Source of the DNA: Chrysomallon squamiferum | Taxonomy: Eukaryota; Animalia; Mollusca | DNA: 64,000 nucleotides | Direction of reading: 5' to 3' | NCBI GenBank assembly: GCA_012295275.1 | Contig: CM022676.1 | Coordinates: 1,364,001-1,428,000, forward strand | In this document: piece after piece, positions 709 to 47,610 of the stretch | How positions within the stretch are numbered: the first letter of the stretch is position 1 | Layout: every line of letters begins with the position of its first letter | Translations under genes and position numbers: made by a program | Notes under the pieces: generated by a model | What the model was told of the DNA's origin: nothing | The model's input: only the letters and a program-made list of their open reading frames with translations | Databases searched by the model: none

Positions 709-870
709 ATATCCTTACTATTTTGTAAATCGAACTCTTTGCCCGATGAACCCAGAACAAAGAAAGAAAATGAGAAAGGAGCAGTCAATTTATGTAGAAT
801 TGTCAACCATGGCTCAAAATAACACTCCATTTATGTTCCAGGCAAAGTTTTTGAAAGATTTTAAAATAGG
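709..870 (+). CDS. SIDT1: SIDT exon (extracellular domain) [12 protein letters not shown]...FKIG
   Basis: tttcag acceptor, gtaatg donor, phase 2-2; RTLC motif. Confidence 0.88.
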
Positions 871-1542
871 GTAATGCAAAAATGATCTTCTTTATTACTG
901 TGTTGATCGTATGTTAGTGTATGTTCAGTTACTGAGTTTTATTTATATCTGTGTGTGTGTGGAAATATAATTTGTTTCTATATATATGTTAAGAGTATGA
1001 ACTTCACTATAGATGTTTCTGTTTTTTAGATAATAAAGTTATTAATACTGAGATTTTTTATCTTGTTAACTCTGTAGTTAATTTAATTTACAAAAAAATA
1101 AAAGGTTTCTTTCACATACATGAATACTTGGATATTTCTATTTTCCTGTGTTTCAGAAAAAATTAATAACATTATCAATTTTAACAGCCATTTATAAATT
1201 TAATATTCAAAGTTCTTTAAATTACACTGGCCTCTGTTATTTCTAATATTTCTGGTTTAAAAATAATTTTTTTGTTTCAGTCATGAGGAATCAAAAACTG
1301 TGAATATAACACCATCTGAACCTTGGTACTTCATGTACACATTTCCAAAAGGTGTGTCATCAGTTCACTTGAAAGTGAATTCATCCAGTAAGCTTTGTAT
1401 GGAAGTGTCAGTTCAAAAGATTGAGGTTTGTTTTAAACAGTATTTAAATATAGCGGTAACATATTGATTAACTTGTTCTTATTATTATAAATTAAAACTC
1501 TGATTGGTTAATTGGCATATGCGTAAATATGTTTCTATGAAG

Positions 1543-1592
<50 letters not shown>

Positions 1593-4500
1593 TGGTAATC
1601 ACATTAAAACAAAATATGTATTTTATGAAAGGAAAAATGATTGAATTTGTTTGCAGTGTCCTGTGTTTGACCTGGACAGAGATGTAGGTTTCCGTGGGAA
1701 ACATCAAACTATGACAACAAAGGCAGCCATGTTTCTGGAGGTATAAAAAATAATTCCTTTAAATTTTCTATAGAATGATAATGTTTTTTTGTTTGTTTTT
1801 TCTTGAAAATCTTTTATAATCTGAACTGACAGTTACTATTATTATTATTTTTATTAATTATTATTAAGTATTATTATTAATTGTGTTATTATTAGTCTGC
1901 TTAATAGAAATGCTATTACAGCAATAGAAAAAACATAAAATAGATATGAATAACATTATTTATACATGTGATAATATATGTGTTAATTTTGAGAAGAATT
2001 AATTATTTTTTATTATTATTATTTTTTTCTTTATCAAATAACAATGATATTAGTAAATAGTACCACAGAAGTAATCGTTATTGTAATAATAGTATTAGTA
2101 AGAAGTAGACATAGAAGTAATAATAGTAGCATTAGTAAGTAGTAACCGAAGCAGAACATTGTAGTGGCAGTTATAATACTGTTAGTAAACATGTACCACT
2201 GTAGTGGTATTGGTAGCAGTAACAGTAGCATTAGTAAGTAGGTGCTGTAACATTAATAACAGTAGTAACTTTAGCAGTAACAGTAATAACTGTAATAGTA
2301 ATATTAATAAGTAATAGCCACAGAAGTAACAGTAGTATTAGTAAGTGGTAGCCACAATAGTAGAAGTATTAGTAACTAGTAGTATTAATAAATAATAGTG
2401 ACAGTAGTAACAGTATTATTAGTAGGTAGTAGTCAGAGTAGTAACAATTATATTACTAAATAGTAATTGTTCATTTGTTCTGTTGGAATACTTTGTTTTT
2501 ATTAAAGTATTGTTTCTGTATTTTCAGCAAAGTGACAACTTGTCTGAGTCTCTGTACATTGTACTTGTTCTCAAAACACTCGACTTGGACTGTGCTGGAA
2601 TAGAAACAATCAGAGAGGCCCAAAGTCTTCGTCAAAAAAGTGTCACCGTTTATATCAAAACTGCACTGTCCAGTAAGTAATGTCCATACACACTGTTCTG
2701 TTTCGTTTTGTTTTGTTTCATTTCATTTCTCATTATTTTTATTTTTATTGTATTTTACTTATTTCATAGTTAAATTATATGACATTATATCATGCATATT
2801 GTATGTATATTATTTTAATTTATGTATATTTGAATTTCTTTTTATATAGTTAATTTAATACTGCAAGTCTTTTTTTAACTGATCAACTTTATATTATCAA
2901 ACAATAGGACTGACAGTCATAGCTATTTATCACAAGCACTGTTTAAGAAATCATTTTCTATTTATGCAGGTTCTGAATATTACAAAGCTGTTTTTGCTGC
3001 CCTTGGAGTCTTTCTGTCATTTTATGTGATTGCAGCTGTCATTGGTTGTGTCTATCATGGATGGTTTGTAAATTTTAAATTCTAATAAATGGCCTATTAA
3101 AATTATTTATAAATCCAAGATATTTATTGTTTTGACTGTCATTAAACACTATGATAGTAAAATAATACAATTACAAAACATCTGAATGCTGCCATTTTAC
3201 TTTTTTAACAACTGATAGTCTTGATATCATCACATATTTTGATTTTATGTGTGGTTTTATGTGTTATTTTTTATTTTTTTATTATATATAGTGCAGTGAA
3301 AAGTATTTTATTTAAAGAAAATTTTTATTCCATCTCAAATTATGTTTTTATGTTATCTGTAAAATTATTATCTATAATATGTCAAATTGTTTATTTTTTA
3401 TTTCATGTCAAACTATGTTTTATTTTATGTGTTTATGTCAAATTAAATTATTACATTTTTCAGTGGATGGAGCAGAGATCTTACAGATTTGACTGAAACA
3501 GAAAAAGGTAAAATAATTGAAGATTCTAAATTATTCTGTGTTTAATTCAAAATGTTCTTATTAATTTTTTAAATGCCCATTAATCAAGCCATGACATGAG
3601 AAAGATTTAAAATATTTAATGAAGAATAAAATAAATATATAGTTTTAGAACTTTTACAAATATGAATTATGTTATTTGGTCGTTCATTTAAGAATCCAGT
3701 TTTTTGTTTTAAGTTACAATTGAACAGTTACTTATTGTCTAATAAACATACATATTAAAATACTTATTTTCCTACATACTAAGTATACTTTCTATACTAT
3801 CTAATCTATCTATAATATACATTCCATGGCAGAGTAAAATCAGGGTTTGATGTTAATTTTTTTATTTACTAGACCAGTGGACTAGTATGTCTTAGAATTT
3901 ACAAGACCTGACCTAATATCAACTAGACCAAACTGTTGAATGACACAATAAACCTTAAGCTTGGATAATTTTGCTAAACTTTGCTTCATATTGCATATTA
4001 TTTGAAGAGTATTACATAATAATTAACCAATGTAACTATATTTGAATAGAACATTGAAAAAAAGCATCATATTGTAACATTTTTTTTATATTTTTGCATA
4101 TTGTACTTACGACTGAACAATATTTAACATTAAAAGTTAATGCTCATAGTCTTATTACCCTGAAATAAGCTAAACTCTCTCTGTGGCAGACAATACAATA
4201 TCAGTTCTCACAGAATATTCATATAGACTTTTCAGATGGTTTGGGATAATTCTTTCAGTTTGAGTTAGAATAGCCACCTTTGTACATGGATATTTTTACC
4301 TACATCAGTTCCATGGGAACATGCACACCATGCCACCACAGTTCCAATGCTTGTTGTGCATTGTAATCTGAAACAATTGACTTGTGCTTTGTGAAAACTG
4401 TGCCTGATGACTTTCCACATTTGATGTCAAAATTTTGTGTATTTTTGTTTGTTTGTGATGTGGATTCAGAGTGGCTTTTTATTGCATTAATCCTAAAATT

Positions 4501-5493
4501 ATTTGTACAAATCTCCGTACAGTTTCCTATTTTCTACATGGATGTACAACATGGTATCGCTTTCTTCATCCTAGTCCAGCCACGAGATCACGTCTTTCCA
4601 TTTTTGGCAGATCTGTTGTTTTCGCTTTTCTGTTTCTTATTTTTCTTCAGATTCTTCCTTACCCTTTCTTTTGTTGGACAAATCAATTTCTGGCGGGTTT
4701 TTGTCAGATGAAAATGTCATCTGCTTGATCACGACTGTAACCATGTGTAATCAACCCAGAAACGGAATCAATTGTCGTATATTTGAAAAAATCGGAAAAT
4801 ATTTATTCAAAGAATGTACACAATTGTATGTTTTGCATTTTATTGCCTTATTCCATTTATTGAACCAAAAAAAAAAAAAAAAAAAATAAAACAAAAAAAC
4901 AACAAAAAAATAACAACAAAAAAACAACAACAAAAAATTGATAGTATATACAACATTGATTTATACTAAACATTCTATATTCAGCAAATCTCGGTCGATT
5001 CCGGTCAGTCGGAACACCTCATCACATTCCACTACGTTTGTATTTCATAGAAATGTATGAGGTGTTCCAAATGTATCATGAGGTACGGAATTGACCGCGT
5101 TGTAACAAATGCTGCCTCTACAAACATGTCCACATCCGTCAGCACCAAGTCTCGATTGTTTAGTTGTTCTCTGCCCACAGCCACACCTCATGTCTAATTA
5201 TAGAACCTGGGATTTCTGCGTCCTTAGAGTAATAATTCGTGAATCCTCTGATGAATGAAAATAGAAGATATTAATGTTTGTAGGATCACTGCAGAGCAAA
5301 TTAATTCACTGTTCATATATTATTGATACGACCAGTCGGGCTAGTCACAAACAGTTGCAATTAGTCCGAACCAGCTGTTTACTTGACAACATCGTTCAGG
5401 TGTGCCTTACTGTCAAAGCCTGTAATTGTAAACATTCTGTAACAATACTATAACATTTTTGTACCCTGTTATATGCTACACAGCACTGAAAAT

Positions 5494-5539
<46 letters not shown>

Positions 5540-6008
5540 TGAAAGTACAAAGAATTGTATTGTACTTTTTATTTATACCACCAAACTTACACTTGAAGAT
5601 AATTTCAGTACTTAATTCTTAGTTTTCAAAATTATTGTATCAAAAATGTGATAACCATTGTTAACAATAATCCACTTTTTAAAGCAGACAGATTATATTT
5701 TCCCTGTTAAAATTAATTAAAAGCACACTGAATCCCTCCTTCCCACAGATAAACTACTACCCTATCATTCAATCAACCATGAAGCCAGTCCTGCCCCTTC
5801 CAGTCATTCAGGTGAGAACATTAGCTTCTTTATTTACTTCCTCCATTTGCTTGACACACTAATCTTTTCTGCAGTAATTGTTGTTTTTGTTATTATTTAC
5901 ATCTGTAAATATTTTATTATTATTATTATCATCTTCATCATCATGATTGAGGATTACCATTTTCATAATCATGAATAAATATTGTTATTATTGTTATAAT
6001 TATTATTA

Positions 6009-6049
<41 letters not shown>

Positions 6050-9000
6050 AAGTAGTAGTAACAGTAGTAATAGTAGTAGTAGTATAGAAATTAAATGTAT
6101 TTATTACTATTACACCAGTTTTCATGATTAACTGATACACATAAAAAAGCATGTTAAATTAAACTGTGTTAAAAATTAAAAAAACAGTAACAATAAGTAA
6201 AAAGATAACAAAAACTAAAAATAATAATTTAAATTATTAATTTATTTTGCACTGTTTTTGTTTTTGTTTTTATCATTTTTAATTAAAATTTTAAAGTTTT
6301 AATTATTTATTTATTTTTTATTCAGTTATAAGATTTATCATAACTTTTAAATAATTTGGTTTTTGAAAAAATCATAAAATTATAAATAATATAACAGTTT
6401 TCACAGACACTGTTTTCGATGTTCATCAGACTTTCATCTATTTTTTATATATTTATTTATTTATTACTATATTTTTTTAGTTTTAACTTGCTTATTTTTA
6501 CAAACGTAGGGGGGGGTTCTTTCTTTGTTTTATTTTTTTTTTTTTTTTAAATTACCAAATTACTAATTATTAAGATTATTGGGTGTCAGTAGTTTAATTT
6601 TGCTACTTTCCTTTCCCCTTTTTTTTTTTTCTCACTTGGTTGTTTAATTCAATTATACTACATTAAAGTTCACATAATTAGCATTTAGCTATGGTCATTT
6701 TGCTGTCTAAACAGTGTTTTCCTATTAATTTATAAAAATCTATGATATATGTGAAAAACATGTTGCAGCTAATGCAATTAAAATATATAAATTTATATAA
6801 TTGAAACAACTATCTTTTTTCTTTAACACAAATAATAACATTAATGTATTTATAGCTATAATAAAATATTTATAAATTTAATTAATTGAAACCAATTTCT
6901 TTTTTCTTTTACCATTAACACAAGTAACAACATTAATGTATTCACAGATATAATAAAATGTATTTTTGAAATAATTTGTTTTACAGATATAATCCAAGGC
7001 AGACTGATTTCGGAATCTGCACAACATTCTCAGTATGGCTCGTTAGAAAACAGACAGAAAGGTAAAATTAAAGAAACAATAATTTAACTCAACCATGATT
7101 ATTTTAATCATGAACTGAAACTTTGTGAGTTAGAGAGACCTGGTGAAAAATGCTCTGACTTTGCTTTGATTTACACTTTCCTAAAATACTTTTTACAGTT
7201 TATGAATTTGTACAATTCTCATAACCTGAGAAACAGATACATCTAACATTAAAAACATCTCACATAGGTATGTTCTTACAGAAATTATTAAGGCATATTT
7301 TGTCTTCAACCCTTATCTGAATATTCACTTACGAAAAATCACAGTTGGTGAATACTATTATATATGGGTAGTGTAAAAAAACAAACAACATAATATCATT
7401 TCAGCTTCCTCTGTTTTCTTTTTTTTTCTTTCTAATTTTAGTATATACTAAGCTTGGAACTAGTATAGTAAATATTGTTTGATTTCATTGAATTAATTAA
7501 TATAAAAAAATAAGGTAAGACATAAATGATATTAATATCATAATATGTATAATATTTAATATAGTTTTGGGGTATTATCATTTCACAAAAATTTCACAGT
7601 AAAAAGATAATAATAATAATAATATTAATAATAATAATTATGAAAAACTAGCTTTTTGCACCAATATTAACATATTCAGTATATAGTATGCAGTGTAGAG
7701 CAATGATCCTTAATTTTATTTTTCATTACCTCATATTAAATAGTTTTATACCATACTTTAAATATTAGTTATGAATAGAGATACAGGATTAATTATAAAT
7801 ATAGAGCTTTCACAAGGGTGCTCTGCTGCCCAGATTGTGAATAACCAGTAACAAGTGCAAATTCTGAATATATCTAAATTATTCTTTTTAAAGCTGTTTC
7901 GAGGTGAATTAATAGAAAATAAAGAAGACTTTTCCTCTGTTGTTTATTGCAGACATAATGTCAGGATCAAAGGAGTTGAGTCCGGTGTCATCCAGTACGT
8001 CTGACAGCGTGGTTGACGTCACGCAGCACACACACCTCGAAGACAGCACCGACATGTCAGATGTCGACTTCCTGCCTGATGCAGACCAAGAGAAACAAAT
8101 CATCAGAACTAAAGTCTGTGAATTTTTTAAATGTACTTATTTTACCACAGAGATCATTTCATCTGTTATTAATATAGAACAACACATATAACAACCAGGA
8201 ACTACTACAAATGGGATAATTTAAGATTTAGAACAGTTACAAGTGTAGACTGTGAATTACAAATGAGATAAACTTTTACATGGTTAATTTAGATAAAATA
8301 TATATCAAATGAGATAATTTAATTTAATAGGTTAATTTAGAACAAATATATAACATCTGTGAATTATTATAAATGGGATAATTTAATATGTTAATTTGGT
8401 TTAGAAGAAACTGGTAACAAAGAGAAGTCTCCTCAGTCTGTCACTGTTCATCACTTCTTCGTTCACAGACCGCCATGTTTGTCAGTGATCTTGCTAGGAA
8501 GAGTGCGAAGAGGCTGGGGAAGATGTATAAAGTTTATCACTGGAATCTGCTCACCATCGCTATTTTCTACGGGTTACCAGTAGCACAGCTTGTCATTACA
8601 TACCAAAACGTAAATTGTATATTAATTTTCATGTTAATATTCAGATAAGTCACAAGTTTCACAATAATTGAGAGATTATAAAAATTCTATAACTTTCAGT
8701 TTATTTGACACAATTTTGTACAAAACGTACAATCATAATTCCAACAACTTTGTTTTATTCACCGTCATTTTTTAAAAAGTGCTGATTTTAGGTTCATGAC
8801 AAACTAAATTTTAATTATTTATTTTAAGTTCTACAACAAACTAAATTTTAAATGTTATTTATTTTAGGTTCTGTGACAAACTAAATTTTAATTATTTATT
8901 TTAGGTTCTATGACAAACTAAATTTTCAATATTATTTATTTTAGGTTCTATGACAAACTCAATTTTAAATAATATTTATTTTAGGTTCTATGACAAACTC

Positions 9001-10026
9001 AATTTTAAATAATATTTATTTTAGGTTTTATGACAAACTAAATTTTAAATGTTATTTATTTTAGGTTCTATGACAAACTAAATTTTAAATATTATTTATT
9101 TTAGGTTCTATGACAAACTAAATTTTAAATATTATTTATTTAAGATGCTACGACTGACTGGAGATGATGATCTGTGCTACTACAACTTCAACTGTGCACA
9201 TCCTTTTGGTGTACTGAGTTCATTCAACAACGTCTTCAGCAACATCGGCTATGTCATGCTTGGCTTTCTTTTCTTATTTCTTGTCTGGAGACGGTAGGGA
9301 AATATCTCCCTTGTGCTTATTTTTAAATCAGTATTTTAAAACTGTTAATAAAGAAGATAATTAAGATTATCACATTTTGAACTAATGCAGTTGTTATTAT
9401 AATTGCATTACAGATGTAACTTCCTCAGATATGATGTGTTTTTGTTTGTTAAATATACATACCAGGATATGCATATTTCACAATGATTATTAAAAATAAA
9501 GTACAGTTTTAACAACAATCACAATAACAACATCAACATCAACACACTGGTAACACATAAATAAAAACAGCATCACATTAATCATGAAAGTCGCAATAAT
9601 TACAATAAGTTAACATTATGTGGTAACTAACAATACAGCAACTCAGTGACACAGAGAAATAACTGAAGTGTTTATTTGATTTTTCAGAGACTTGATACAC
9701 AAAAAAGTGGTAGCCTCTGATCCTCAGCTGGAAAAGGTATTTTTAAATCTTTGTTCTTGTTACAATTAATCAACTAATTAATATAATGTATCTTAAAGAA
9801 GACTGTAAGTATTTTAAATGAGAACTAAGAAACATGCTACAGAATTTTATGTCTGTTTGATATATGGTGATGAATGTAGATGTGGGTGCACTGTGTTGGT
9901 TTCAGTTATATGTACCTCAGTCACATTTCAGTATTTCTGTTATTTTTTTATTTATTAATAAAAAAAGAGAAAGATTATATGTGTTGTAAATGTGTACTTT
10001 CTGAGTATTTTGAAAGAGAGAGGGGA

Positions 10027-10102
<76 letters not shown>

Positions 10103-10389
10103 ACAGAAGTTCAACAAAACCTTGTTATGAAAAACAGATTGTAAAACTGTTTCATACAGGTGTAATATGTGTGTCTGTAAGTTGTTTTTGCTAATGTTTA
10201 AATAGACTGTGATGTGACTGATAATTAATGTTGTTTCAGTTGCTAGGAATTCCACAACACTTTGGACTGTTCTATGCAATGGGACTTGCACTTGTAATGG
10301 AGGGAATTATGAGCGCCTGTTATCATGTCTGTCCAAACTATTCAAACTTCCAGTTTGGTATGAATGTCTGTCTGTCTATCTAATCTATA

Positions 10390-10434
<45 letters not shown>

Positions 10435-13400
10435 GTCTGTCTGTCTAATCTATCTATTTATCCATCTGTCTAATCTATCTATCTCACTGTCTCTCTGTTT
10501 ATCCATCTATCTATATATACCTATAATAAACAATAAAATAAATGAGGAGCAGTTGGCATAATGTTGTTGAGTGAATGAAAGAATAAATGAAAAAATAATT
10601 GACAAAAAAAACAAGCCTGATATGTTGTAGATAGATTGTTAGATTACTTGTACAGAAAATTGTGTTTGTTTGTTTGTTTATTTATTTGTTTGTTCATTTA
10701 TTTATTTATTTATTTGTTTGTTCATTTATTTATTTATTTATTTATTTATAGATAATTTGTGAAATGCTTGTGCATGTGTGTGTGGTTATATGCGGGTGCA
10801 AAAAACAGCCAACAATTCCATTAAATAAAAAATGAATCTTCAGTGCACACCAAAGTCAATATTTATAATATCAAATATATATATATATACATATACATGA
10901 AACTGCAGATTTCTTATTGCAAATGCTATCATGGATGACTGAAAAACAAACAAGAGAATCTTCACAGAATGTTACATGACTGGCTAAGCATGTGAAATTT
11001 AGTGAAATTACTTTTCAAAATGAGATGTTTAACGATGATGAATTAGCCATTGCTTTTGCTAGTTTTAGCTTACTTCAGGCAACTGTGCGTGTGTGCCTTA
11101 CTGGTTTATTATTATTATTATTTGTTTTTCTTTTTATTATTTTATTTTTCAGTTGAATTATAGGAGAAGTCTTCATTTTATTTTAAATATGTTTGTCTGT
11201 TATAATAAATCATTTCCTTTGGAAATATTTGTTATACACCTTTCAAGGTGATCAGAAACAAGAAACAAGAAATAGAATTTACATGCTACATATTTTCAAT
11301 ACTTGTGTTATTTGAACATTTCCTTCTATGTTTTATACAGATCTCATTAACTAGTACTTTGAGACAAATTACTTTCAACAGAACTGTTTGTGCTCAATGT
11401 AGTTACATCCTTTGTAGAAAAATAATGAGAAGTAACACTGAAGGTTATAAACCCTGTTTATGGAAGGCATAGTTTTTCTATTTGCAAATATGTTAGTGTG
11501 TCTGTAGAGTGCTCATTTCTCATTCCAACCAGTGCTCTACATTTTTTATCAAATATTTAATATGTGCATTTCTGGCTGTGCTAACATACTTTCCTGTTCA
11601 AAAGTGATCAGAGCAGATTTTTATCCTTGTCTTGTTTGGCATGACACCATAACTGTGTGTTAAAACTGTCAGGTCCATCACCAAATAATCATTGTGGTCT
11701 TTTTGTAGATACATCTTTCATGTACATCATAGCCTGTCTGAATATCCTCAAAATATACCAGACGCGACATCCAGACATCAATGCCAAGGCTTACCAAACC
11801 TACTTCTTCATGGCTGTTGTCATCTTCATTGCTGTTGTTGGTGTGGTAAGTAATCAAATTTTCATAAACTTTTTTCACATACTTGTTACAGATGAAATTC
11901 ATGCTAATACGGCCTCTTCTAATAAGTAACGTTTTGATAATGGTAAATGGTTTTGTTTCAGATTTATACAAAAATAAATCATGTGATAAATATGTTTCAT
12001 GTTTACTCAGTTCTATTCAATAATGAATCTGTTTTGGCTTTACTCAGTGATAATTGTGTTCTGATTTTGCAATGATAAATATTCAGTCTGTTTGACATTT
12101 ACTTGCTGATGAATATGTTTCAGTTTTGTGTAAGGATAAATCTGTTTCATTTTTACATCATGATAAATCATCAATATGTTTCAGTTTTTTGAACACTTTT
12201 GCATTCCACCTGTTTCAGGTTTATACAACAGGTTTGGTGTGGATTACTTATGGTGTAGTTCACATGTTGGCCAGTTTGCTTCTCACTGGACAAGTTTACT
12301 ACATGGGCACATGGAAAATAGGTAATAACACTCTAAAGAGAAACCAATAAATTAAATTTACAAATCAAGTCTCCATGGTTCTTGGACAAAATCTTCAAAA
12401 CACTGAAAAGCTTTATTGAATTTTGAACTTTACTGACAACAAAACAAAATATGTTAATTCTGTATAAAATTAAAAAATAACTACAGTACACGCGTGTTTA
12501 GAAAATTAACAAACTTAATGTATCAAGATATCTGCTAGAGAGAAAAGTGAATATTATACTTCATTATTAGAAAAGGTATGTCACATTAAATGATTTCAGT
12601 AATAAATAATAAGTTAAAATCTAGTGTCTATTGTATAATGATTTTACAGTGGTCGAGGCAGAATTTATAAAGTTGTATTTCTGTTTTCATTTTTAGACCG
12701 TTATGTGTTCAGAAGAATTTTTCACATTTTTATTACTGATGGAATTCAGTGTGCCAAACCAGTTTACATGGTAACAGTTCTGAAATTTTATTTATTTATT
12801 TTTACTTGTTTATCAACCAATACAAGACATTTCTGTTTGCAGCATAACGAGACACGAGAGAGAATCTAAAGCTCTGAAGTCTGAATCTATTGTGGTGCAT
12901 CTGACATTATAGTAGCTTTTAGTTTTTGATTGCTTTATAAAAATATATAAACTACCTGCAGACTGACGAAGTTGTATAGAAAATATAAACAGGTTTCATA
13001 CATAGACTTGAATGTGCACAAAATGTAAATGGATTTCATATTCAAATTATATGCATGCATTCCTAAATCCTGAGATTTGGTAAGTGTTGTCTGTCATTCA
13101 TAACATCAGTCTTCTAGGTCAAATGGCCACTTCTGTTTTGTAAACACATTTGGCTGTTTCCCATTCCAAAGTCCAGGATGTTTTCTGTTTTGTATTTTTC
13201 TTTCTGGGAAATTTATGAAAATGACAAAAGTAGCTCATTGTATTTTCCATTCCAAAGCAATGTCTATTTTATCAATGAAATGTATTCTTTCTGAGGTGAT
13301 TTTCATATAACTTTTCCACTCTTTTTCTGTCCGATCCATAAATGGTACAGAACTGTAAAACCACAAGTAAAAATGATTTAGCATTTTATTCAGTAAACCA

Positions 13401-16400
13401 TTTTATCTTTACTTCAGCATGAGAGTCCAGTTATTCATATACCACTATAAGAGTTGTATGGTGAATCTAATGAAAGAAGAAATTTAATTTGTAGATGTGA
13501 ACTGAATTCAACATAATTTAGATCACATTAAGTTTTTATTACTAGTTTTCTGTTCCTAATAATAATTGATTTAAAGTAATTTTCTTTTATAAATTATCTA
13601 ATGATTATATAAAAAATGTTTTATATATATAAAGAATCAGAGTTTAAATATTGTTTTCTATACTGAAACTGATAAAGTACAAAAAGTTTGGAATTAGAAT
13701 TTATTTTTATTAATTTTTATTTTTATTAATTTTTATTTTTATTTATTTTCCAGAGTCGTTTCTTACTGCTTCTTATAGGAAATATTATAAACTGGTCATT
13801 GTAAGTGTTCATTTTATATATATGTATATTAAAATTACTTTCTGTTTATTTAATTTTCCACAAAGTCTCTCACTCTTTCTTTCTCATTCTCTCTCTCCTC
13901 TTTCTTTCACCCTCACTTTATATTTCTCTCAATCTCTCACATACAAGAACATTAAATCAGTTTCAGTTTCATTTCTCAGTACTTAATGGTCCATATTCAA
14001 AATACAAATATCACTTTCAGTGCTTTATATGGGGCTATAAAACAACCTGGTGACTTTGCTACGTATCTGCTGGCTGTGTTCATTGGAAATCTTCTACTTT
14101 ACAGCTTATTTTACATTATTATGAAGGTGGGTATATTTTGTATTAGTTATTATGAAAATATTTTTATTTTACATTATTATGAAAACAGGTATTTTTAAGA
14201 TTACTAAGAAAGCAGGTCAGTTTTTATGTTTTTATGAAAAGACGTCTGTTTTGAATTATTTATACCATGTATGATAAATATTAATTAGCACTTTTTGTTG
14301 TTGTTTTTGTTGTTTTTGTTGTTTTTATATATTCTATGCTTAAATAGCCAGAGAAGAGAGAGAGATAGTCTGATTTGAAAATGGAGAAAAACAATAGATT
14401 TAAAATCAGTTCGTTCATTTTTCTCATTCCAGCTGTTGTCAGGGGAGACACTGCGGACTCTTCCACTGACTTGTATTATTCTTGCTACAATAACTTGGGC
14501 TGCAGCGCTCTTCTTTTTCTTCTCTCATCTGACTTCATGGCAGGTGTGTTATTTAATTTCTTAAGATATATTTCTTCTTCTTGATTTTTTAACTTAAATA
14601 TTATAATGTACTAAATGTACTATGTACAGATGTAAAATGTTACTTTCTTCCTCTCATGGAGCAAAGCAGTTAACATAATGTGTATAAATCAAGTACAATC
14701 TAGATAATATTGAGAGTAAAATTATAATTAAAGCTTTTGTTACTTCTAAACTAAAAACTGATAAATCCTCTAAAGGTGAAGGTTAGAGAGAAGGAAGACA
14801 GGGAAGGGTTAGAGAGGAATGACTTTGTGAGTGATATTTGTTTATGTAGAAAACTCCCAGAGAGTTCTGTGATTAACTGACGTGTTTGTTTATGTAGAAA
14901 ACTCCCAGAGTGAGAGTTCAGTAATTAATTGATGTGTTTGTTTATGTAGAAGACTCCCAGAGTGAGAGTTCAGTAATTAATTGATGTGTTTGTTTATGTA
15001 GAAGACTCCCAGAGTGAGAGTTCAGTGATTAATTGACCTGTTTGTTTATGTAGAAGACTCCCAGAGTGAGAGTTCAGTAATTAATTGATGTGTTTGTTTA
15101 TGTAGAAGACTCCCAGAGTGAGAGTTCAGTGATTAATTGATGTGTTTATGTAGAAAACTCCCAGAGTGAGAGTTCAGTAATTAATTGATGTGTTTGTTTA
15201 TGTAGAAGACTCCCAGAGTGAGAGTTCAGTGATTAATTGATGTGTTTATGTAGAAAACTTTGTTTATGTAGAAGACTCCCAGAGTGAGAGTTCAGTAATT
15301 AATTGATGTGTTTGTTTATGTAGAAAACTCCCAGAGTGAGAGTTCAGTGATTAATTGACCTGTTTGTTTATGTAGAAAACTCCCAGAGTGAGAGTTCAGT
15401 GATTAATTGACCTGTTTGTTTATGTAGAAGACTCCCAGAGTGAGAGTTCAGTGATTAATTGATGTGTTTGTTTATGTAGAAGACTCCCAGAGTGAGAGTT
15501 CAGTAATTAATTGATGTGTTTGTTTATGTAGAAGACTCCCAGAGTGAGAGTTCAGTAATTAATTGATGTGTTTATGTAGAAGACTCCCAGAGTGAGAGTT
15601 CAGTGATTAATTGACCTGTTTGTTTATGTAGAAAACTCCCAGAGTGAGAGTTCTGTGTTTAACTGACGTGTTTATTAGAAAACTCCCAGAGTGAGAGTTC
15701 AGTGTTTGTTTATGTAGAAGACTCCCAGAGTGAGAGTTCAGTGATTAATTGATGTGTTTGTTTACGTAGAAGACTTTGAGAGTTCAGTAATTAATTGATG
15801 TGTTTGTTTATGTAGAAGACTCCCAGAGTGAGAGTTCAGTAATTAATTGATGTGTTTGTTTATGTAGAAAACTCCCAGAGTGAGAGTTCAGTGATTAATT
15901 GATGTGTTTGTTTATGTAGAAGACTCCCAGAGTGAGAGTTCAGTGATTAATTGATGTGTTTGTTTATGTAGAAAACTCCCAGAGTGAGTTCTGTGTTTAA
16001 TTGATGTGTTTGTTTATGTAGAAAACTCCCAGAGTGAGTTCTGTGTTTAATTGATGTGTTTGTTTATGTAGAAGACTCCCAGAGTGAGAGTTCAGTAATT
16101 AATTGATGTGTTTGTTTATGTAGAAGGCTCCCAGAGTGAGAGTTCTGTGTTTAACTGACGTGTTTGTTTATGTAGAAAACTCCCAGAGTGAGTTCTGTGT
16201 TTAATTGATGTGTTTGTTTATGTAGAAGACTCCCAGAGTGAGAGTTCAGTGATTAATTGATGTGTTTGTTTATGTAGAAGACTCCCGCTGGTTCCAGGGA
16301 ATGGAATCGTGACTGCATTATACTGCAGTTCTATGACGCTCATGACATCTGGCACTTCCTGTCTGCCATTAGTTTGTTTTTTTCATTTCTCGTGAGTGTT

Positions 16401-17022
16401 TTACATTTTATGATTTAACAGTGAAAGTAATTTATAAAGCTATGACTGTGCAGTGTAATAGTAAATGGAATGAGCACACAAAAATACTGTTACATGTGTG
16501 AAAAGAAAACTACCTATTCAAAACACATATTTTAAAATAAGTAAAGCAGACAGGTTATATTTAAAAACAACACACGGCTTTAGATATACAGTGATATTGA
16601 AAGTAAGTACACCATATACATTTAAACTGTTATAAAGTAAGTAAATTATATTTAAACTGTTATGTTTAAAATGTAAGTAAATTATAGAAGTTATATTTAT
16701 ACTGTTATGTTTAAAAAGTAAGTAAATTATAGTTATATTTAAATGTTTATATTTCAAAAATAAGTTGAACATACAGTACCTGTTGAGTTATGTGAGTTTC
16801 TTTGTGATTGTTATAACAGTAACATTAGCATACACTGAAATCACACGTTCATCTACCTCACTGATGAACTCTTTGCTGTTCCCCATGTCTGTAGTAAACA
16901 TTTTCAATCGGTTGTTGTTAATTCTATTTATATGTTGTAATTCTTTTTTCATTTTCTAGATTTTGTTAACTCTCGATGATGACCTGACCTTCACCAGACG
17001 TGATAAAATTCCAGTGTTTTGA
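709..17022 (+). CDS. SIDT1: SID1 transmembrane family member (SIDT1/SIDT2/CHUP-1-like), 5'-partial, 20 exons in window
   Basis: Exons 709-870, 1281-1425, 1657-1740, 2528-2672, 2970-3063, 3464-3507, 6987-7061, 7953-8113, 8469-8609, 9145-9293, 9688-9736, 10240-10357, 11709-11845, 12219-12321, 12697-12770, 13754-13800, 14021-14126, 14433-14543, 16278-16391, 16960-17022 all have AG/GT ends and matching phases, giving about 706 aa. Hallmarks: [87 protein letters not shown]...[12 protein letters not shown]1 vs SIDT2 cannot be resolved in an invertebrate. Confidence 0.96.
1281..1425 (+). CDS. SIDT1: SIDT exon [28 protein letters not shown]...VQKIE
   Basis: tttcag/gtttg; matches SIDT PS.P.YF.Y.FP.GV.SV motif. 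Confidence 0.92.
1543..1590. repeat. (CA)n microsatellite
   Basis: Perfect dinucleotide run; similar runs at about 17225-17262, 17546-17570 and 20010-20070. Confidence 0.95.
1657..1740 (+). CDS. SIDT1: SIDT exon [28 protein letters not shown]
   Basis: ttgcag/gtataa; conserved CPV.DLD..QTMT.KAA. Confidence 0.95.
2050..2470. repeat. Degenerate (AGT/AAT/AGC)n low-complexity tract
   Basis: Decayed trinucleotide repeat; explains the Leu-rich minus-strand ORF 2034-2231. Confidence 0.8.
2528..2672 (+). CDS. SIDT1: SIDT exon [16 protein letters not shown]...KTALS
   Basis: tttcag/gtaagt; phase 0-1. Confidence 0.9.
2970..3063 (+). CDS. SIDT1: SIDT exon encoding TM1 ([24 protein letters not shown])
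   Basis: atgcag/gtttgt; LG.FLSFY motif. Confidence 0.93.
3464..3507 (+). CDS. SIDT1: SIDT exon (cytosolic loop) [14 protein letters not shown]
   Basis: tttcag/gtaaaa; phase 2-1 fits neighbours. Confidence 0.85.
3841..5422 (-). mobile_element. Internally deleted hAT element (ZNF862/TTF zinc-finger type) in a SIDT intron
   Basis: Imperfect TIRs CAGGGTTTGA (3841) and TCAAAGCCTG (ends 5422), with subterminal ACCAGT.G..CTAGT motifs at both ends. Minus-strand remnants [44 protein letters not shown] (TTF zinc finger) and [12 protein letters not shown] (hAT C-terminus). No clean TSD. Confidence 0.6.
5749..5811 (+). CDS. SIDT1: Candidate SIDT cassette exon [21 protein letters not shown]
   Basis: ccctccttcccacag acceptor, CAG|gtgaga donor, 63 nt, symmetric phase 1-1, open, GC-richer than the intron. 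Confidence 0.6.
6987..7061 (+). CDS. SIDT1: SIDT exon [25 protein letters not shown]
   Basis: ttacag/gtaaaa; phase 1-1; YGS motif of the SIDT cytosolic loop. Confidence 0.85.
7953..8113 (+). CDS. SIDT1: SIDT exon ...[18 protein letters not shown]
   Basis: ttgcag/gtctgt; conserved D.L.D.D.EK.IIRTK. Confidence 0.92.
8469..8609 (+). CDS. SIDT1: SIDT exon [11 protein letters not shown]...[23 protein letters not shown] (TM2)
   Basis: tcacag/gtaaat; strong family motif. Confidence 0.95.
8786..9144 (+). repeat. 40-bp minisatellite (about 9 units) built from the acceptor of SIDT exon 9145
   Basis: Unit gttctatgacaaactaaattttaaatattatttattttag, ending in register at the true acceptor. Confidence 0.95.
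9145..9293 (+). CDS. SIDT1: SIDT exon [22 protein letters not shown]...SNIGYVMLG
   Basis: AAG acceptor at 9142-9144 (required by phase and alignment length), gtaggg donor. Confidence 0.93.
9688..9736 (+). CDS. SIDT1: SIDT exon [17 protein letters not shown]
   Basis: tttcag/gtattt; phase 2-0. Confidence 0.9.
10029..10098. repeat. (GA)n microsatellite
   Basis: Perfect run; followed by (CTAT)n/(CTGT)n at about 10365-10510. Confidence 0.95.
10240..10357 (+). CDS. SIDT1: SIDT exon [39 protein letters not shown]
   Basis: tttcag/gtatga; contains catalytic Ser/Zn His (SACYH). Confidence 0.97.
11709..11845 (+). CDS. SIDT1: SIDT exon [29 protein letters not shown]...VGV
   Basis: ttgtag/gtaagt; RHPDINA motif. 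Confidence 0.96.
12219..12321 (+). CDS. SIDT1: SIDT exon [34 protein letters not shown]
   Basis: tttcag/gtaata; QxYYMG.W motif. Confidence 0.95.
12697..12770 (+). CDS. SIDT1: SIDT exon [25 protein letters not shown]
   Basis: ttttag/gtaaca; phase 1-0. Confidence 0.92.
13754..13800 (+). CDS. SIDT1: SIDT exon [15 protein letters not shown]
   Basis: ttccag/gtaagt; R..LL..GN..NW motif. Confidence 0.94.
14021..14126 (+). CDS. SIDT1: SIDT exon [36 protein letters not shown]
   Basis: tttcag/gtgggt; DFA.YLL..NLLLY..FYIIMK. Confidence 0.96.
14433..14543 (+). CDS. SIDT1: SIDT exon [37 protein letters not shown]
   Basis: ttccag/gtgtgt; phase 0-0. Confidence 0.94.
14836..16286 (+). repeat. 52-bp minisatellite (about 29 units) containing acceptor plus first 9 nt of SIDT exon 16278
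   Basis: Unit aa(g/a)actcccagagtgagagttcagt(g/a)attaattgatgtgtttgtttatgtag; the last unit runs directly into the real exon. Confidence 0.97.
16278..16391 (+). CDS. SIDT1: SIDT exon [38 protein letters not shown]
   Basis: atgtag/gtgagt; two Zn-binding His (HDIWH). Confidence 0.96.
16960..17022 (+). CDS. SIDT1: SIDT last coding exon [20 protein letters not shown]
   Basis: ttctag acceptor; canonical SIDT C-terminus, TGA at 17020-17022. Confidence 0.96.
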   Translation: MLLTLDDDLTFTRRDKIPVF

Positions 17023-17223
17023 CCGAAGCTGTGATAAAGTTGTGAAAGTGAAAGTTTGTGTTTTGCTAGAACTAGATAATATTTAAATATTCGCAAAGAA
17101 TTAATTACTTATTTTTTATGTACTCGTTATAACATAAGGTCATACAGTATATCTCTATTTTTAGTTGTATACATATTTTTTATGTTATTGTATCCATTAG
17201 GAAATAGTTTGTTATTTGATGTG

Positions 17224-17264
<41 letters not shown>

Positions 17265-20008
17265 TATGTAACAGAATAACTGTAATATTTGAGAAATGAT
17301 ACTTTGATTCTAACAATGAAACAGTTGATGTTTTATTTGACCACTGATAAAAAAGATACAATAATTATAGTATTAGTCAGTTTTAGTAATTTGTAAAGTT
17401 GTTTTTTTATGAAAAAAGTGTTAAGATTTAATTTAGTCAATAAAAAAATATTTATAATTCTGTATAGTGTAAATTGTGTGTAATGTTATTTAGCAAACAA
17501 TAAAAGAAATAGAAATGTATTTACCCACAGAAAAAGAGATGTTATGTGTGTGTGTGTGTGTGTGTGTGTGGTAAAAGACAATAACATTATATATCCTGCA
17601 ATTATATTAAAATTAAGGTGCAAAAGAAACTGCTTTAGATATAAACATGTGAAATTTTATCTTGTGAATTCTTTTACTTAGGATTATTACAAAAAAGGAT
17701 TTTGAAATTATTAAGTAATCAATATTTTTGTTTTGATGTTAATAAATGACTTGTATTACTTTTGTGATTGTAACTGTAGATTTTTGGATATGCGGATGTT
17801 CTGGTTTTGATATTAATATGTTGTTATTAAACAAATTATTTATAATAGCTGATGATAAACAACATAGAGGTATCTTACATATATCAGAAACAACACTGTT
17901 CAAAATAATCACAGGCTGTACTAAGTAGATATTGTGTTCTGTAAATACTTACCATTTAATATAATTTGTTACCTCACCTCCAGAATCAGTCATCCTGGAT
18001 TAGAATATAAATTCTTTAAAGTAATTTTATTTCCAGAAAAATCTTCATGAATATTATTATTAACATCAGTTCAAATTTTCATTGTAAGTTCAGAAGGAAT
18101 TTATCTAATAATTATATTGGAAGCATTAGGCATATCTGTTTCTGTTCCTTTAATTTTAGTGTCATTTGGAAAATGTACTTTCGTTACAAAATTATTTTTG
18201 GGGGAAAGTGTTATGAAAATAGAAATTTTACTAATAATAAAAATAAAAATAAATGTTCAGAAAATAAATGAAACATGAATACTTACTGACAGATGTCACA
18301 AAATAACTTTTTAGAATGTTACTCAGTGTGTTCATAATTTGATTTAAAATCTGTTGTGAAAATGTATGTGTCTATGTGTCTATATATATTAAGTCCTTGT
18401 GCAGTTTTAAATTTTTATAACTTCTGATCTATAATGATAAAAATTCTTCTGTGAAAAAGATAAGAAAAAATAATTTCTGGATTTCTAAAAATATGTATTG
18501 TTGAATTTCTTAGTTTTCTACATGACCACCAGCGTTTACTGTATTTTGCCTTGTATATGTTTGTCTTTCATTATGATGGACTAACGCTCTTTTATTTTGG
18601 TTGTTATATAAAAAGCATTTTAAATTTGTTTGCATAATAGCAAAAGGAATAATTTATTGCCTAATAAAGTATTTTAAATTTAGTTTGTTTAGTTTTTCAA
18701 TCACATGACAATAGGTACCTAAAAACATAAAAATAAAACAAGGGTCAGTTGCTATATATAAGAAAATTTTATAAATGTAACACGAAGTAGCTTAATGACA
18801 GTGATATATAAAATGTTCAAAAGGAAATGTGCAGTGAAGAATTGCTTACAGATGTGTGATGTTTGTGTTTAGAAGCAGAAACCATCAGTGAGAGAGTGTC
18901 TGAATTTGAAAGGAATTCATGTACGTAAGTTTATATGTTCTAACATTATAAAGATGATAATGTGTGTGTGTGTGTGTGTGTGGACTAACCAGTGTAGGAT
19001 GGTTGGAGGTCACCACATCTAGAAGGACATTATTTTTTAAAAGGTCCCCAAAAGGACAAATTAATTACTTTTTTTACATCTTTTCTTTTCTGAATATTCA
19101 TTTTTTCCAGTTATTTATTTTTACTTATGAATATATGTATGTGACAAAATTTTCAAAATTATTATATTCCTATCACCCCAAAATATTATACATCATTAGA
19201 AAGAGATAATGAACAAAAACAAAACAAAATAAACAAACAAAAAAGAAACACATAAAATGACACCAAGATCTCCTTGATACAAAAAAGTTACGAATTTTTA
19301 TTGGAATAAAATTTGCGGGTATTTTCCCTTCATAATCTACCGAGAAAGTGTGATCCGTTTCTGTCTTTTTGCAGCATAACCACTGAATATCTCGTAGAGC
19401 TTCAATCTACTATACATGTATTATATATCAACATGAAGCTTTTATGAGTTCTAAACCTGTACTCTATTTTTAAGCAAGTTGGAAACATTTTTCTCCCTCC
19501 TAAATGACATCTGGAAATCTTTGTTATAAGAAATAATAAATTGTCATGAATTTCTTGTAATGCATATTGGTTTTGTTTATAAGGGTGGGGGGGAAATTGA
19601 AGAAAAGAAATAAAAGAAATTTAAAAAATATAACGTATAAATGTCTATTCTGATAGAAACGATATCCACTGATTACAGTCATGTAATAATAATAACCTTT
19701 ACTTTCAATTTTTCTTTTCTTTTATTGTATGGAAACTTAATGAATAAACTGGGTGATGTTGGAAAGGAACCATCTTGTAAAGTTTAACTCCAAATAAGTA
19801 TGATGACATGATGTTGATTTATTTGTGTTTTCTTTTTAATCTTCTCAGGTGTATGCACTTCTGTATGCTTATTATATGTAAATGTGTGTATGCGTATAAA
19901 TATTTTGTTTACTACTTTTGCTTATGATATTTCTGATTAATGTTTTATTTGGATTTTGGATTTGAAACAAATATAGACAACAACAACAAAATTAATTAAT
20001 TAATAATA

Positions 20009-22260: not shown

Positions 22261-22620
22261 AATATCTCCATAATGAGGAAATGTATACCATAGACTGATA
22301 CTTAACTGTGAATGGAAGCTTATACCCATAATGAGGAAATGTATACCATGGTCTGTGATAATTAACTGTGAATGGAAGCTTATACCCATAATGAGGAAAT
22401 GTATACCATAGTCTGTGATAATTAACTGTGAATGGAAGCTTATACCCATAATGAGGACATGTATACCATGGTCTGTGATAATTAACTGTGAATGGAAGCT
22501 TATACCCATAATGAGGACATGTATACCATGGTCTGTGATAATTAACTGTGAATGGAAGCTTATACCCATAATGAGGAAATGTATACCATAGACTGTGATA
22601 CTTAACCGAGTGGAAGCTGT
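22261..22620. repeat. 60-bp minisatellite, about 6 copies
   Basis: Unit tatacccataatgagga(a/c)atgtataccat(g/a)gtctgtgataattaactgtgaatggaagct. Confidence 0.95.
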
Positions 22621-44727: not shown

Positions 44728-47610
44728 CAGTGATTCTCAACCGACGTGTCGCGACACACAAGTGTGTCGCGAGGCTCCGTCAGGTGTGTCGCGAAACTTT
44801 GTGACGAACACCTGAAAACACGGACAATGTGCATAAATCTCCGTTTCATGTTCTACTAATATGCCTTGGAGGAAGGAACTTCCTTTCTCCAGTGAATATG
44901 CACACATTCAAAGTCCACCAATCAGTGGCCGCCACCAACCTTTGCACCTTTCACTCAAGGTCGATCAGTTGCCCATGAGACGTCAGTGTGACAGGTTGTG
45001 TGTGTGGTGTTGTTCCGCACTGGTCGTGTGTGCGCGTGCGTAATGCCGATTGCCGAATTAACTTCGCTGTGTTTTAAATTATTGTCATTCTTAAACACTT
45101 ATTAGTAAAGAGATGTAGCTAACTAGGTGTATTTAGTTAAGAAATTATGCTAGTTAGAACAGACTTTGCAAATCTGTCGTCTCGGCAAATCTGTTCAGTT
45201 AACAGTGTTTACTATTTACTTACATCGAATTCAATCGTACTGCACACTCAATTTTGACCTCTAAATTACAGATGAATTTGAACTAAATTAGCTTGTGACT
45301 AATCATAACTAGAACTGAACGCTGTTTTCTGTGCTTGCATATTTTTCAATTTGTTTATCTCAGAATCAGTGTTGTTCACGCACTTTCAAACTATTGTTTT
45401 TAGCTCGCAACACTTGAGTTAAATCACATGGTGAATTAATTAAATAAGGATATTCAGTTTTTGTTATTGCAATGGTAGAATAAAGGTTAGTTTTTACCAT
45501 ATATTTCAGAAGGTGATAGAGTGAAAAAAAATTGGAACACTACTTAATGTTCCAGTTTGACACAGGAGGCTGACAGTTGACACACGGATCAGTTTAACAC
45601 TGCCTGTTGTTTACTATTATTGGTTAGAGTACGCGCGTGTTAATTGCTTATGAATACATCTTCACAATGGATAAATTTGTTAAAAGGAAGGATTAGTGAC
45701 GGGTGTGAGGTTGAAACAGAACATACAATGAAGCCCACAAAATCCAGCACAAAAAAGGCAAAAGTTCACCATAATAGACGGTATTGTGATGATTATTTGA
45801 AGTTTGGATTTTCTTGGTCAGAAGATGTTGCTCAACCATGTCCATTATGAATAGTTTGTGGTGAAAAAATGGCCAATGAATCCATGGTACCAAATAAATT
45901 ACAAAGACATTTCACGACTAAACATTCCTACCTACAAGATAAAGATCTGAATTATTTTCAAAGACTGTTACAACAGCAATCAAAGCAACGCAATGTTTTT
46001 CAGAAAACAATGACCGTGTCTGAACGGGCTCAACTCGCTTCAATTGAGGTAGCTGAAATAATAGCAATGAAATCCAAATCCCACACTTTTGCTGAGTCAG
46101 TTATCCTTCCCGCTTGTAAAAAGATGGTGAAATCCATGTTAGGCGAAACAGCTGAAAAAGAAATTAGTAAAATTCCGCTTTCAAATGATACAATACACAG
46201 GAGAATTGTAGATTTATCTGAAAACATTGAAACTAATGTTCAGAAAAAACTTGAAGGATCTAAATTTGCTTTAATAGTTGATGAATCGACCGATATCAGT
46301 AACTGCTCAGTTGCTTGTATTTGTTCGTTTCATTAATGACGATGAAATAATCAATCAGTTTGTGTGTTGTAAAGAAAGGCCAACCACTACTAGAGGTCAA
46401 GATATTTTTGATATGATAACCGGCTATCTTAAAAAAATGAATTTGACGTGGAAGTTTTGTGTTGGTATTTGTATTGATGGTGCACCATGTACGGTAGGCT
46501 GCATTAAAGGTTTTGCAACACTAGCACAGAAAGAAAATCCAAATCTTGTTCGTAGTCATTGCTTTTTACATAGAGAAGTTTTAGTTTCAAAAGTATCACA
46601 AGAAGATTTGAAGCAAGTGTTACATCAAGTAGTTGAAATTGTCAATTCTCAACATGTTCGCTTACTCATGCATACCGACGTTCGATGGCTGTCAAAAGGT
46701 AAAGTGTTAACTCGCGTTCATGAATTACAGAAGGAATTAATAGTATTTTTTGATAAAGAAAAGCACGAAAGATTTTGTAAATATCTTCGATGTGAATTTT
46801 GGATGGCCAAAATGGAATATTTAACGGAAATATTTGGTCAACTTAATATTGTGAACAGTAGTATGCAAGGTCGAAACGAAAATATTCTAACTTCGACAGA
46901 TAAATTGGTTGCCCTTAAAAAGAAAATTGTTATTTGGAAAAACAGAGCAAAGTTGGGTGAGTTTGATGTTTCCTACAACGCGTACTAACTGCACTAAAGA
47001 AATGATCCCTATCGTGGTGGAGCATCTGACAGCGCTCGAAGAAAACATCGACCACTACTTTCCGTCGCTGAACACTGAAAAGTACGACTGGGTTCGTAAT
47101 CCTTTTGTAGATGTTCCTTCTAATATTGGGTTTAAATTATGCGAAGAAGAAGAATTGGCTACCATTTCAAGTGACTGCAGTCTTAAAATAAAGCATTCTG
47201 GGGTAGATATCGACACATTTTGGATTTCAATACAAAAGGAATTTCCCGCATTAGCTGAAAAAGCCCTGTTCTTTTACAATTCTCTACTCCTTATTTGTGT
47301 GAATTGGGCTTTTCAACCTTAAATAATATAAAAACAAGAAGAGAGAAAGACTACGTTCCACTGAAGAAGAAATGAGAGTTTGCTTATCGCACATACGACC
47401 AAATATTCAAGAAGTCATAAGACAACACCAGGCACAAGTTTCACACTACGTAAGTGGCAATTCTGGGATACTAACATAATAAACTGTATCAGACAAGTCC
47501 ATATATTTATTTTACGATCTCATTATATAATATTTAAAATTATTACTGTGTCGCGACAGTTTCATGCGCTCGTAGGTATGTCGAGAGTAAAAAAAGGTTG
47601 AGAAACACTG
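44728..47610 (+). mobile_element. Full-length hAT Buster/Charlie-family DNA transposon (2883 bp)
   Basis: TIRs CAGTGATTCTCAACC / GGTTGAGAAACACTG (14/15). Perfect 8-bp TSD CTGTAGGG (44720-44727, 47611-47618) with central TA typical of Buster. Subterminal GTGTCGCGA repeats. Confidence 0.97.
45667..47450 (+). pseudogene. Decayed Buster-type (ZBED5/SCAND3-like) transposase
   Basis: BED finger RRYCDDYLKFGF..P.P*IVC..MANESM.P.KL.RH..TKH, DESTD, ICIDGA, HCFLH, VRWLSKG, LCELGFS, QAQVSH. Has a stop, several frameshifts and an in-frame deletion after VEIVN. Confidence 0.93.

Follow-up and report, generated by a model that had tools for sequence, protein, structure and literature searches.

A splice acceptor amplified into a 52-bp minisatellite in a mollusc SIDT gene is probably a mirage of which only the last copy is used in the assembled mRNA

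We analysed a window of 64,000 nucleotides from Chrysomallon squamiferum (contig CM022676.1, positions 1,364,001 to 1,428,000), which carries on its forward strand a gene of the SIDT/SID-1 family with two tandem arrays across splice acceptors (Table 1). The joined frame of the 20 exons contains a single stop codon, the one at its end, and four of the splice junctions are listed as joints in RNA contigs. Among 121 homologous proteins the best blastp matches of the product were SIDT1-like proteins of abalone, at about 60%. The 114-nt exon that follows the longer array matched human SIDT1 (phmmer E value of 1.4e-14) and residues 775-812 of SIDT2 (4.9e-14), and its HDxWH zinc motif and the loop cysteine upstream of it align in register with H796, H800, and C787 of SIDT2. 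Human SIDT2 has ceramidase activity. Its zinc site consists of H796, H800, H568, S564, and D579, and immediately above this site C787, in loop 10-11, takes part in a disulfide (PMC10272179; this and the other papers given by PMC or bioRxiv identifier are cited for the parts of their text that were available). Among the true introns of the gene the shortest measures 220 nt, and those on either side of the 114-nt exon have 1734 and 568 nt.

Table 1. Coordinates within the window of the SIDT gene and of its two arrays
Feature	Position	Strand	Basis
SIDT/SID-1-family gene; 20 exons in window, 706-aa open frame to IPVF-stop; 5' part outside map	709..17022	+	tblastn exon map, joined frame
Second minisatellite across an acceptor, about nine 40-bp units; nine decoy AG and the true acceptor (9145); no donor within the unit	8785..9154	+	TRF; acceptor placed by homology
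Upstream exon, ends in LTSWQ; donor CAG/GTGTGT, phase 0	14433..14543	+	Sequence; one spliced contig per run
Intron with array, 1734 nt; whole intron absent from assembled mRNA	14544..16277	+	RNA contigs, 4/4 runs
Degenerate 5' edge of array; contains GTGAGT, the same T-rich tract, and TAG	14826..14849	+	Sequence
52-bp minisatellite, 29 decoy copies and the true acceptor	14837..16286	+	TRF and parsing
True exon, 114 nt (HDIWH to FSFL); donor CTC/GTGAGT; corresponds to human SIDT2 775-812 with the equivalents of C787, H796, and H800	16278..16391	+	Homology; start in RNA contigs
Last coding exon, up to the stop codon	16960..17022	+	tblastn exon map, joined frame

The array before the 114-nt exon is a repeat far beyond chance expectation. 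TRF reported a period of 52 with 28.4 copies and a score of 1754, together with higher-order periods of 104, 154, and 204 bp. When the array was parsed, we found 30 acceptors of the form TAG-AA(G/A), which comprise 29 decoys, with their first exon-like base at positions from 14850 to 16226, and the true acceptor at 16278. The repeat unit consists of the 43 nt that precede the true acceptor and the first 9 nt of the exon, and the array ends with the true acceptor as its final unit. An earlier note on this DNA, made from the sequence alone, had described about 29 units with a 52-bp period in front of a SIDT exon and had taken the 30th TAG for the real acceptor; TRF, parsing, and the phmmer matches agree with the former, and the RNA contigs of four out of four runs with the latter. 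The same note had presented all of the roughly 29 acceptors as identical to the true one, which is not the case, as only 10/29 decoys are identical to it over positions -20 to +9 and 2/29 over -43 to +9.

Most units have the look of a microexon. TAG is present in all 29 decoy units and is followed after 12 nt by GTGAG in 26 of them. The 12-mer is in phase 0-0 and free of stops in 26/29 units; it encodes KTPR before GTGAG in 25 units and KAPR before GTGAGA in one. In unit 1 the 12-mer is not followed by a GT, unit 9 is reduced to 18 nt, and unit 20 has KTLR followed by GTTCAG. As the earlier note recognized, the commonest variant of the 12-mer (AAG/AAA, in 12/29 units) is synonymous. Other details given there held in part. 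The 40-nt spacer ascribed to intact units is found in 18/29, with spacers of 27-38 nt in nine units and none in two. GTGAGT does occur in three decoy units (at 15972, 16022, and 16176), each with an A at -1, so that the donor is perfect on its intron side only. The real exon begins with the same nine bases as the 12-nt piece and then continues with GCT where the unit has AGA; the last codon of KTPR and the GTGAG lie in the part of the unit that corresponds to the intron tail. The array contains 16 unit types and nested deletions, and unit 1 and the 5' edge are divergent; judging by its letters, the edge is likely to be an older, decayed copy of the unit. The true acceptor is itself a tandem TAG-AAG (NAGNAG, window positions 16275-16280) of which the RNA contigs use the first AG, and the G-to-A variant carried by 12/29 decoys abolishes the second.

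A search of sequencing runs listed eleven, nine of which contain part of the stretch, and we compared four of them (X6 to X9) in detail over positions 11640-14897. X8 and X9 are recorded as RNA; X6 and X7 come from one sample with an unrecorded library type, but are spliced, which gives a total of three samples from two studies. Each of the four runs has a single unbroken contig of 1092-1150 nt that covers the upstream exons, joined across GT..AG introns, and beyond 14543 its end matches the initial 30 nt of the true exon (from 16278), hence position 14543 is joined directly to 16278 and KTPR is absent. A length of 401-404 nt past the donor can be accounted for by the 114-nt exon followed by the last exon and a UTR that runs into an AC repeat, whose start is 379 nt away. 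The depth in the donor bin (14474-14582) was 8.1, 10.1, 34.8, and 21.5 in the four runs, compared with 8.09, 10.08, 34.81, and 21.51 expected from the main contig alone. No second contig was present at the 14543 donor in any of the four runs among the matches listed. The array intron is removed whole and the last acceptor is used in the major mRNA form, and the donor at 14543/14544 with its phase 0, proposed in the earlier note, is right by sequence and by the joined frame. That note had also suggested that 12-nt insertions at the 14543/16278 junction be looked for at depth; the contigs of the four runs contain none, but contigs cannot show minor isoforms. Assembly loses rare variants and collapses bubbles, so that only the major splice form is seen, and the tissues of the runs are unrecorded. 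Because contigs hide minor isoforms, there is room for leaky inclusion of KTPR.

The RNA contigs gave three further observations on the gene. Upstream of the exon at 14021 its frame is open for another 41 nt (13980-14020), with an AG at 13979-13980; the contigs of all four runs use 14021. The spliced contigs of X6, X7, and X8 start 112 nt ahead of 11708, close to where the exon at 10240 begins (around 10240-10250), and the spliced contig of X9 extends 55 nt beyond these starts, possibly by a branch or by alternative splicing. The joint 12770-13754 is absent from the table of RNA joints, likely dropped at a skipped repeat, with no bearing on the array.

The runs also bear on whether the array is real, since a short duplication could have been inflated by the assembler, with few or no extra copies in the genome. 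It is true that no run contig spans the array. However, array-type letters were present at unit 1 in two of the four runs (X7 and X9, the latter from another study) at intron-level depth, like other intron pieces, and X7 has an 82-nt unspliced contig with an array-type unit at a depth of 5.17, compared with 33.5 for the mRNA. X6 (mRNA depth of 54.2) and X8 had no array-type letters, a contig gap that is weak by itself. Five other runs, four of them guessed to be DNA and one of unrecorded kind, contain 0.62-0.73 of the sampled words of 13750-17300. Moreover, a collapsed or looped assembly would not be expected to show 16 distinct unit types, nested deletions, and higher-order periods, and we regard an artefact as highly improbable.

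The earlier note had favoured a cassette of microexons encoded by a variable number of tandem repeats. In its selected and regulated form, non-adjacent units would be spliced in, and a variable number of basic KTPR peptides would tune the handling of nucleic acids or lipids by SIDT. If inserted, KTPR would enter 12 residues upstream of the loop cysteine equivalent to C787. The 12-mer with its phase 0-0, its freedom from stops, and its synonymous commonest variant fits this reading, as does the preference of true microexons for in-frame, charged insertions in loops (PMC13149111). To assess the microexon look, we scored the unit donors with a small position weight matrix made from the 19 donors of this gene. 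AGA/GTGAGA scored 4.4, above 5/19 real donors, and AGA/GTGAGT scored 5.0, above 7/19; of 699 intronic GTs, 9% and 6%, respectively, score as high. We then simulated duplications across the 18 other acceptors of the gene, requiring a piece of 30 nt or less, and 849 of 20,664 duplications (4.1%) yielded a microexon that is in frame, lacks stops, and has such a donor; 17/18 acceptors gave at least one geometry of this kind. The in-frame microexon look is an uncommon outcome of such a duplication, roughly one in 25, which can be expected occasionally if mirages are common.

The letters of the 12-mer give no sign of coding constraint. There are two types of substitution in the 12-mer and eight in the 40-nt spacer, which amounts to a similar density, and KTPR or the GT is lost in 4/29 units. 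The synonymy of AAG/AAA was considered as a signal of selection and rejected, as 9/36 changes in the 12-mer, and 4/12 transitions, would be synonymous by chance. Neighbouring decoy units lie 27-40 nt apart, in contrast to at least 220 nt for true introns of the gene and 0.2-5 kb in the micro-exon genes (MEGs) of schistosomes (bioRxiv 10.1101/2023.06.21.545858); the use of non-adjacent units is geometrically possible.

We compared the loop in the 121 homologues, of which two lack HDxWH. Among the 119 scored, the spacing of W/Y (-23), P (-19), and C (-9) before HDxWH is kept in 115, and one more keeps the spacing with P replaced by A. Three of the 119 lack the upstream exon, leaving 116 comparable homologues; none of these has an insertion in the loop, and none of the 121 contains KTPR. 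P0090 had appeared to have a long loop, which proved to be an artefact of the pattern, its spacing being normal. For genomic comparison we inspected 80 of 177 relatives in metagenome contigs. None of the 80 was a genomic locus of the same species, and ten were genomic with an intron at the codon in question, all distant, with a best DNA identity to the window of about 80-83% (L033, L055, L059, L061, L067, L071, and L073-L076; L061 was included though its intron lacks an in-frame stop, and L037, L040, L042, and L043 were excluded because their coding sequence is contiguous). All ten SIDT loci share the intron before the K/L-(T/S)PA codon, and none of them has boundary copies or a repeat in this same-codon intron. 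Hence, the intron position is old and the array is not. The direct 14543-16278 contigs without KTPR in four out of four runs (for the major form), the loops free of insertions, and the absence of the array from 10/10 other loci speak against a cassette, and the lack of conservation contrasts with the high conservation ascribed to functional microexons (PMC13149111). We consider a selected cassette very unlikely.

The SIDT gene has a second array of this type, which lacks the microexon feature and which is a further point against a selected cassette. Seven of its nine decoys reach a stop at codon 3, three of the nine outscore the true site (5.8), and the decoys read TAG/GT at the boundary compared with AAG/AT at the true site. 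The array is tolerated despite decoys that run into stops. We considered recursive re-splicing via the AG/GT of these units and rejected it, as the regenerated donor scores -1.1, under all 19 real donors. Across the gene, boundary copies are found at 2/20 acceptors and at 0/19 donors. The gene thus shows two cases of acceptor copying, of which one has the look of a microexon and the other does not.

Overall, the 52-bp array is likely to be a "mirage" minisatellite of the acceptor type that ordinary repeat turnover has amplified and of which only the last copy is used in the assembled mRNA. Neutral amplification had been the fallback of the earlier note, and it both fits the evidence and matches a known class of repeats. 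The array may have originated from a short duplication across the acceptor, and slippage or unequal crossing-over with homogenisation could then have produced the 16 unit types, the higher-order periods, and the decayed 5' edge. The last acceptor would be chosen by exon definition, being the sole copy with a full exon and a donor behind it, while the decoys would offer a 12-nt pseudo-exon only. Because ten decoys equal the true site over -20 to +9, the deciding splice signal should lie downstream of +9, in the body of the 114-nt exon and its donor. We also considered an RNA structure that masks the decoys and rejected it (z of 0.23; 115/200 shuffles fold equally well), and the lack of a masking fold likewise points to a downstream signal. 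Use of a decoy without the unit donor would lead to a stop, in most cases after 9 to 14 codons and in 13/16 unit types no further than 14 codons on; such RNAs are likely to be degraded and hence hidden. Use of a decoy with the unit donor would yield in-frame KTPR, which is not seen in the contigs. The KTPR frame would be a by-product of the position of GTGAG in the copied intron tail. In human genes, exon definition favours the splice sites that lie closest across the exon (PMC9225289). Competing human 3' sites nevertheless show an overall preference for the upstream site, which is merely reduced by exon definition (PMC9225289), and therefore 29 decoys would not be skipped cleanly as a matter of course.

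Counting against this explanation, the unit donors are not weak by the standard of the gene and only 4.1% of the simulated duplications take on the look of a microexon, and a leaky mirage deserves consideration. Here the origin would be neutral as well, but a decoy acceptor and its unit donor would be used at a level of at least 5% in some tissue or allele, adding one or a few KTPR units to the loop before the zinc site, and it is the in-frame state that would have let the array reach 29 copies. The arrangement AG, 12 nt, and GTGAG in phase 0 is kept by 25/29 units, the unit donors lie within the range of the real ones, the null rate of the microexon look is 4.1%, and the in-frame array with its 29 decoys is longer than the stop-containing array with nine in the same gene. 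In addition, human repeats across exon-intron boundaries often come with alternative transcripts (PMC2812944). On the other hand, the main contig is unbroken at the donor and is the only one there in all four runs among the matches listed, the loop that is free of insertions in 116/116 comparable homologues bears the disulfide cysteine above the zinc site, and in amphioxus, mirages that carry cryptic AG/GT yielded no aberrant mRNA in the accounts available (PMC3087553, PMC3902484). We consider leaky use of this kind unlikely. It is a little less probable still that the mirage is becoming exons, in which case a bank of 25 frame-keeping KTPR microexons would be spliced in appreciably in some tissue, and the length of the array would set the share of SIDT with extra basic residues beside the disulfide above the zinc site. 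If true, this would be a direct view of the birth of an exon from a mirage, which in PMC3087553, as far as its available text goes, is proposed only as a model.

With the mirage as the preferred reading, the SIDT locus offers a natural test bed for acceptor choice, as ten decoys equal to the true acceptor over -20 to +9 are skipped, so that the locus isolates the sequence downstream as the deciding signal, and the twin array at 8785-9154 provides a stop-containing control in the same gene. The locus also calls for caution in gene prediction, because the copying of acceptors can produce units that resemble microexons as a by-product. The locus would gain in importance only if real inclusion of KTPR appeared in raw reads. 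We inspected the flanks of the other arrays in the window (at 22268, 31956, 37001, and 38116) and found no tie to an exon. The first of these, a 60-bp minisatellite of 5.7 copies (22268-22606), has open frames on the minus strand, and about 85 nt further on there is a strong donor-like AAG/GTAAGT on the plus strand. Elsewhere in the window there are three overlapping, broken ORFs at 45851-47322, whose residues presumably mark them as resembling a hAT-type (ZBED/SCAN-like) transposase, and frameshifted ORFs at 62610-63475, which we take to resemble a remnant of a Tc1/mariner transposase.

The class of mirages is already published, and the SIDT array adds an example from a mollusc; our literature search, which covered titles and had most subscription papers outside its reach, found neither mollusc mirages nor arrays of microexons built from repeats or VNTRs. 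Amphioxus mirages are described in the globin genes BflGb6 (acceptor type) and BflGb9, and in Adh3, troponin C, and PGBD5 (PMC3087553, PMC3902484). Those of BflGb6 combine the 3' end of an intron with the 5' part of the exon and contain cryptic AG/GT, and splicing was normal by RT-PCR (PMC3087553, PMC3902484). The SIDT array is alike in its tandem copies of intron end and exon start, in the cryptic AG/GT of many units, and in the normal main mRNA; its 52-bp unit falls within the range of Adh3 (10-72 bp), and more than one array per locus is possible in amphioxus also. It differs in belonging to a mollusc, in having 29 decoys compared with 3-6 at BflGb6, and in that most of its units frame a stop-free 12-nt pseudo-exon.

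Among human genes, the 37-bp VNTR in intron 7 of F7 has an end unit that spans the exon-intron boundary, and its identical pseudo-sites, though functional, are normally silent (PMC1557585). F7 concerns the donor side, where the first copy is used, whereas SIDT concerns the acceptor side, where the last copy is used; in both, the copy that adjoins the true exon wins (PMC1557585). The repeats at the boundaries of human segmental duplications are likewise minisatellites across exon-intron boundaries and can activate cryptic sites, but 66% of their intron modifications come with alternative transcripts, in contrast to none in the SIDT contigs (PMC2812944). With the MEGs of Schistosoma (bioRxiv 10.1101/2023.06.21.545858) and vertebrate neural microexons (PMC13149111), the SIDT units share a very short, frame-keeping form. 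Those microexons, however, are spliced in, and they either lie far apart, as in MEGs (0.2-5 kb), or are both regulated and conserved, the functional ones often being neural (PMC13149111), whereas the SIDT units are skipped, lie 27-40 nt apart, and are restricted in lineage. Human CBS 844ins68, a 68-bp duplication (PMC2630376), resembles SIDT in duplicating a 3' splice site together with the head of the exon, and differs in having one extra copy and no array. In 844ins68 the downstream copy is reportedly used and the insert spliced out (Romano et al., 2002), and truncated exons are said to silence duplicated acceptors (Reed and Maniatis, 1986).
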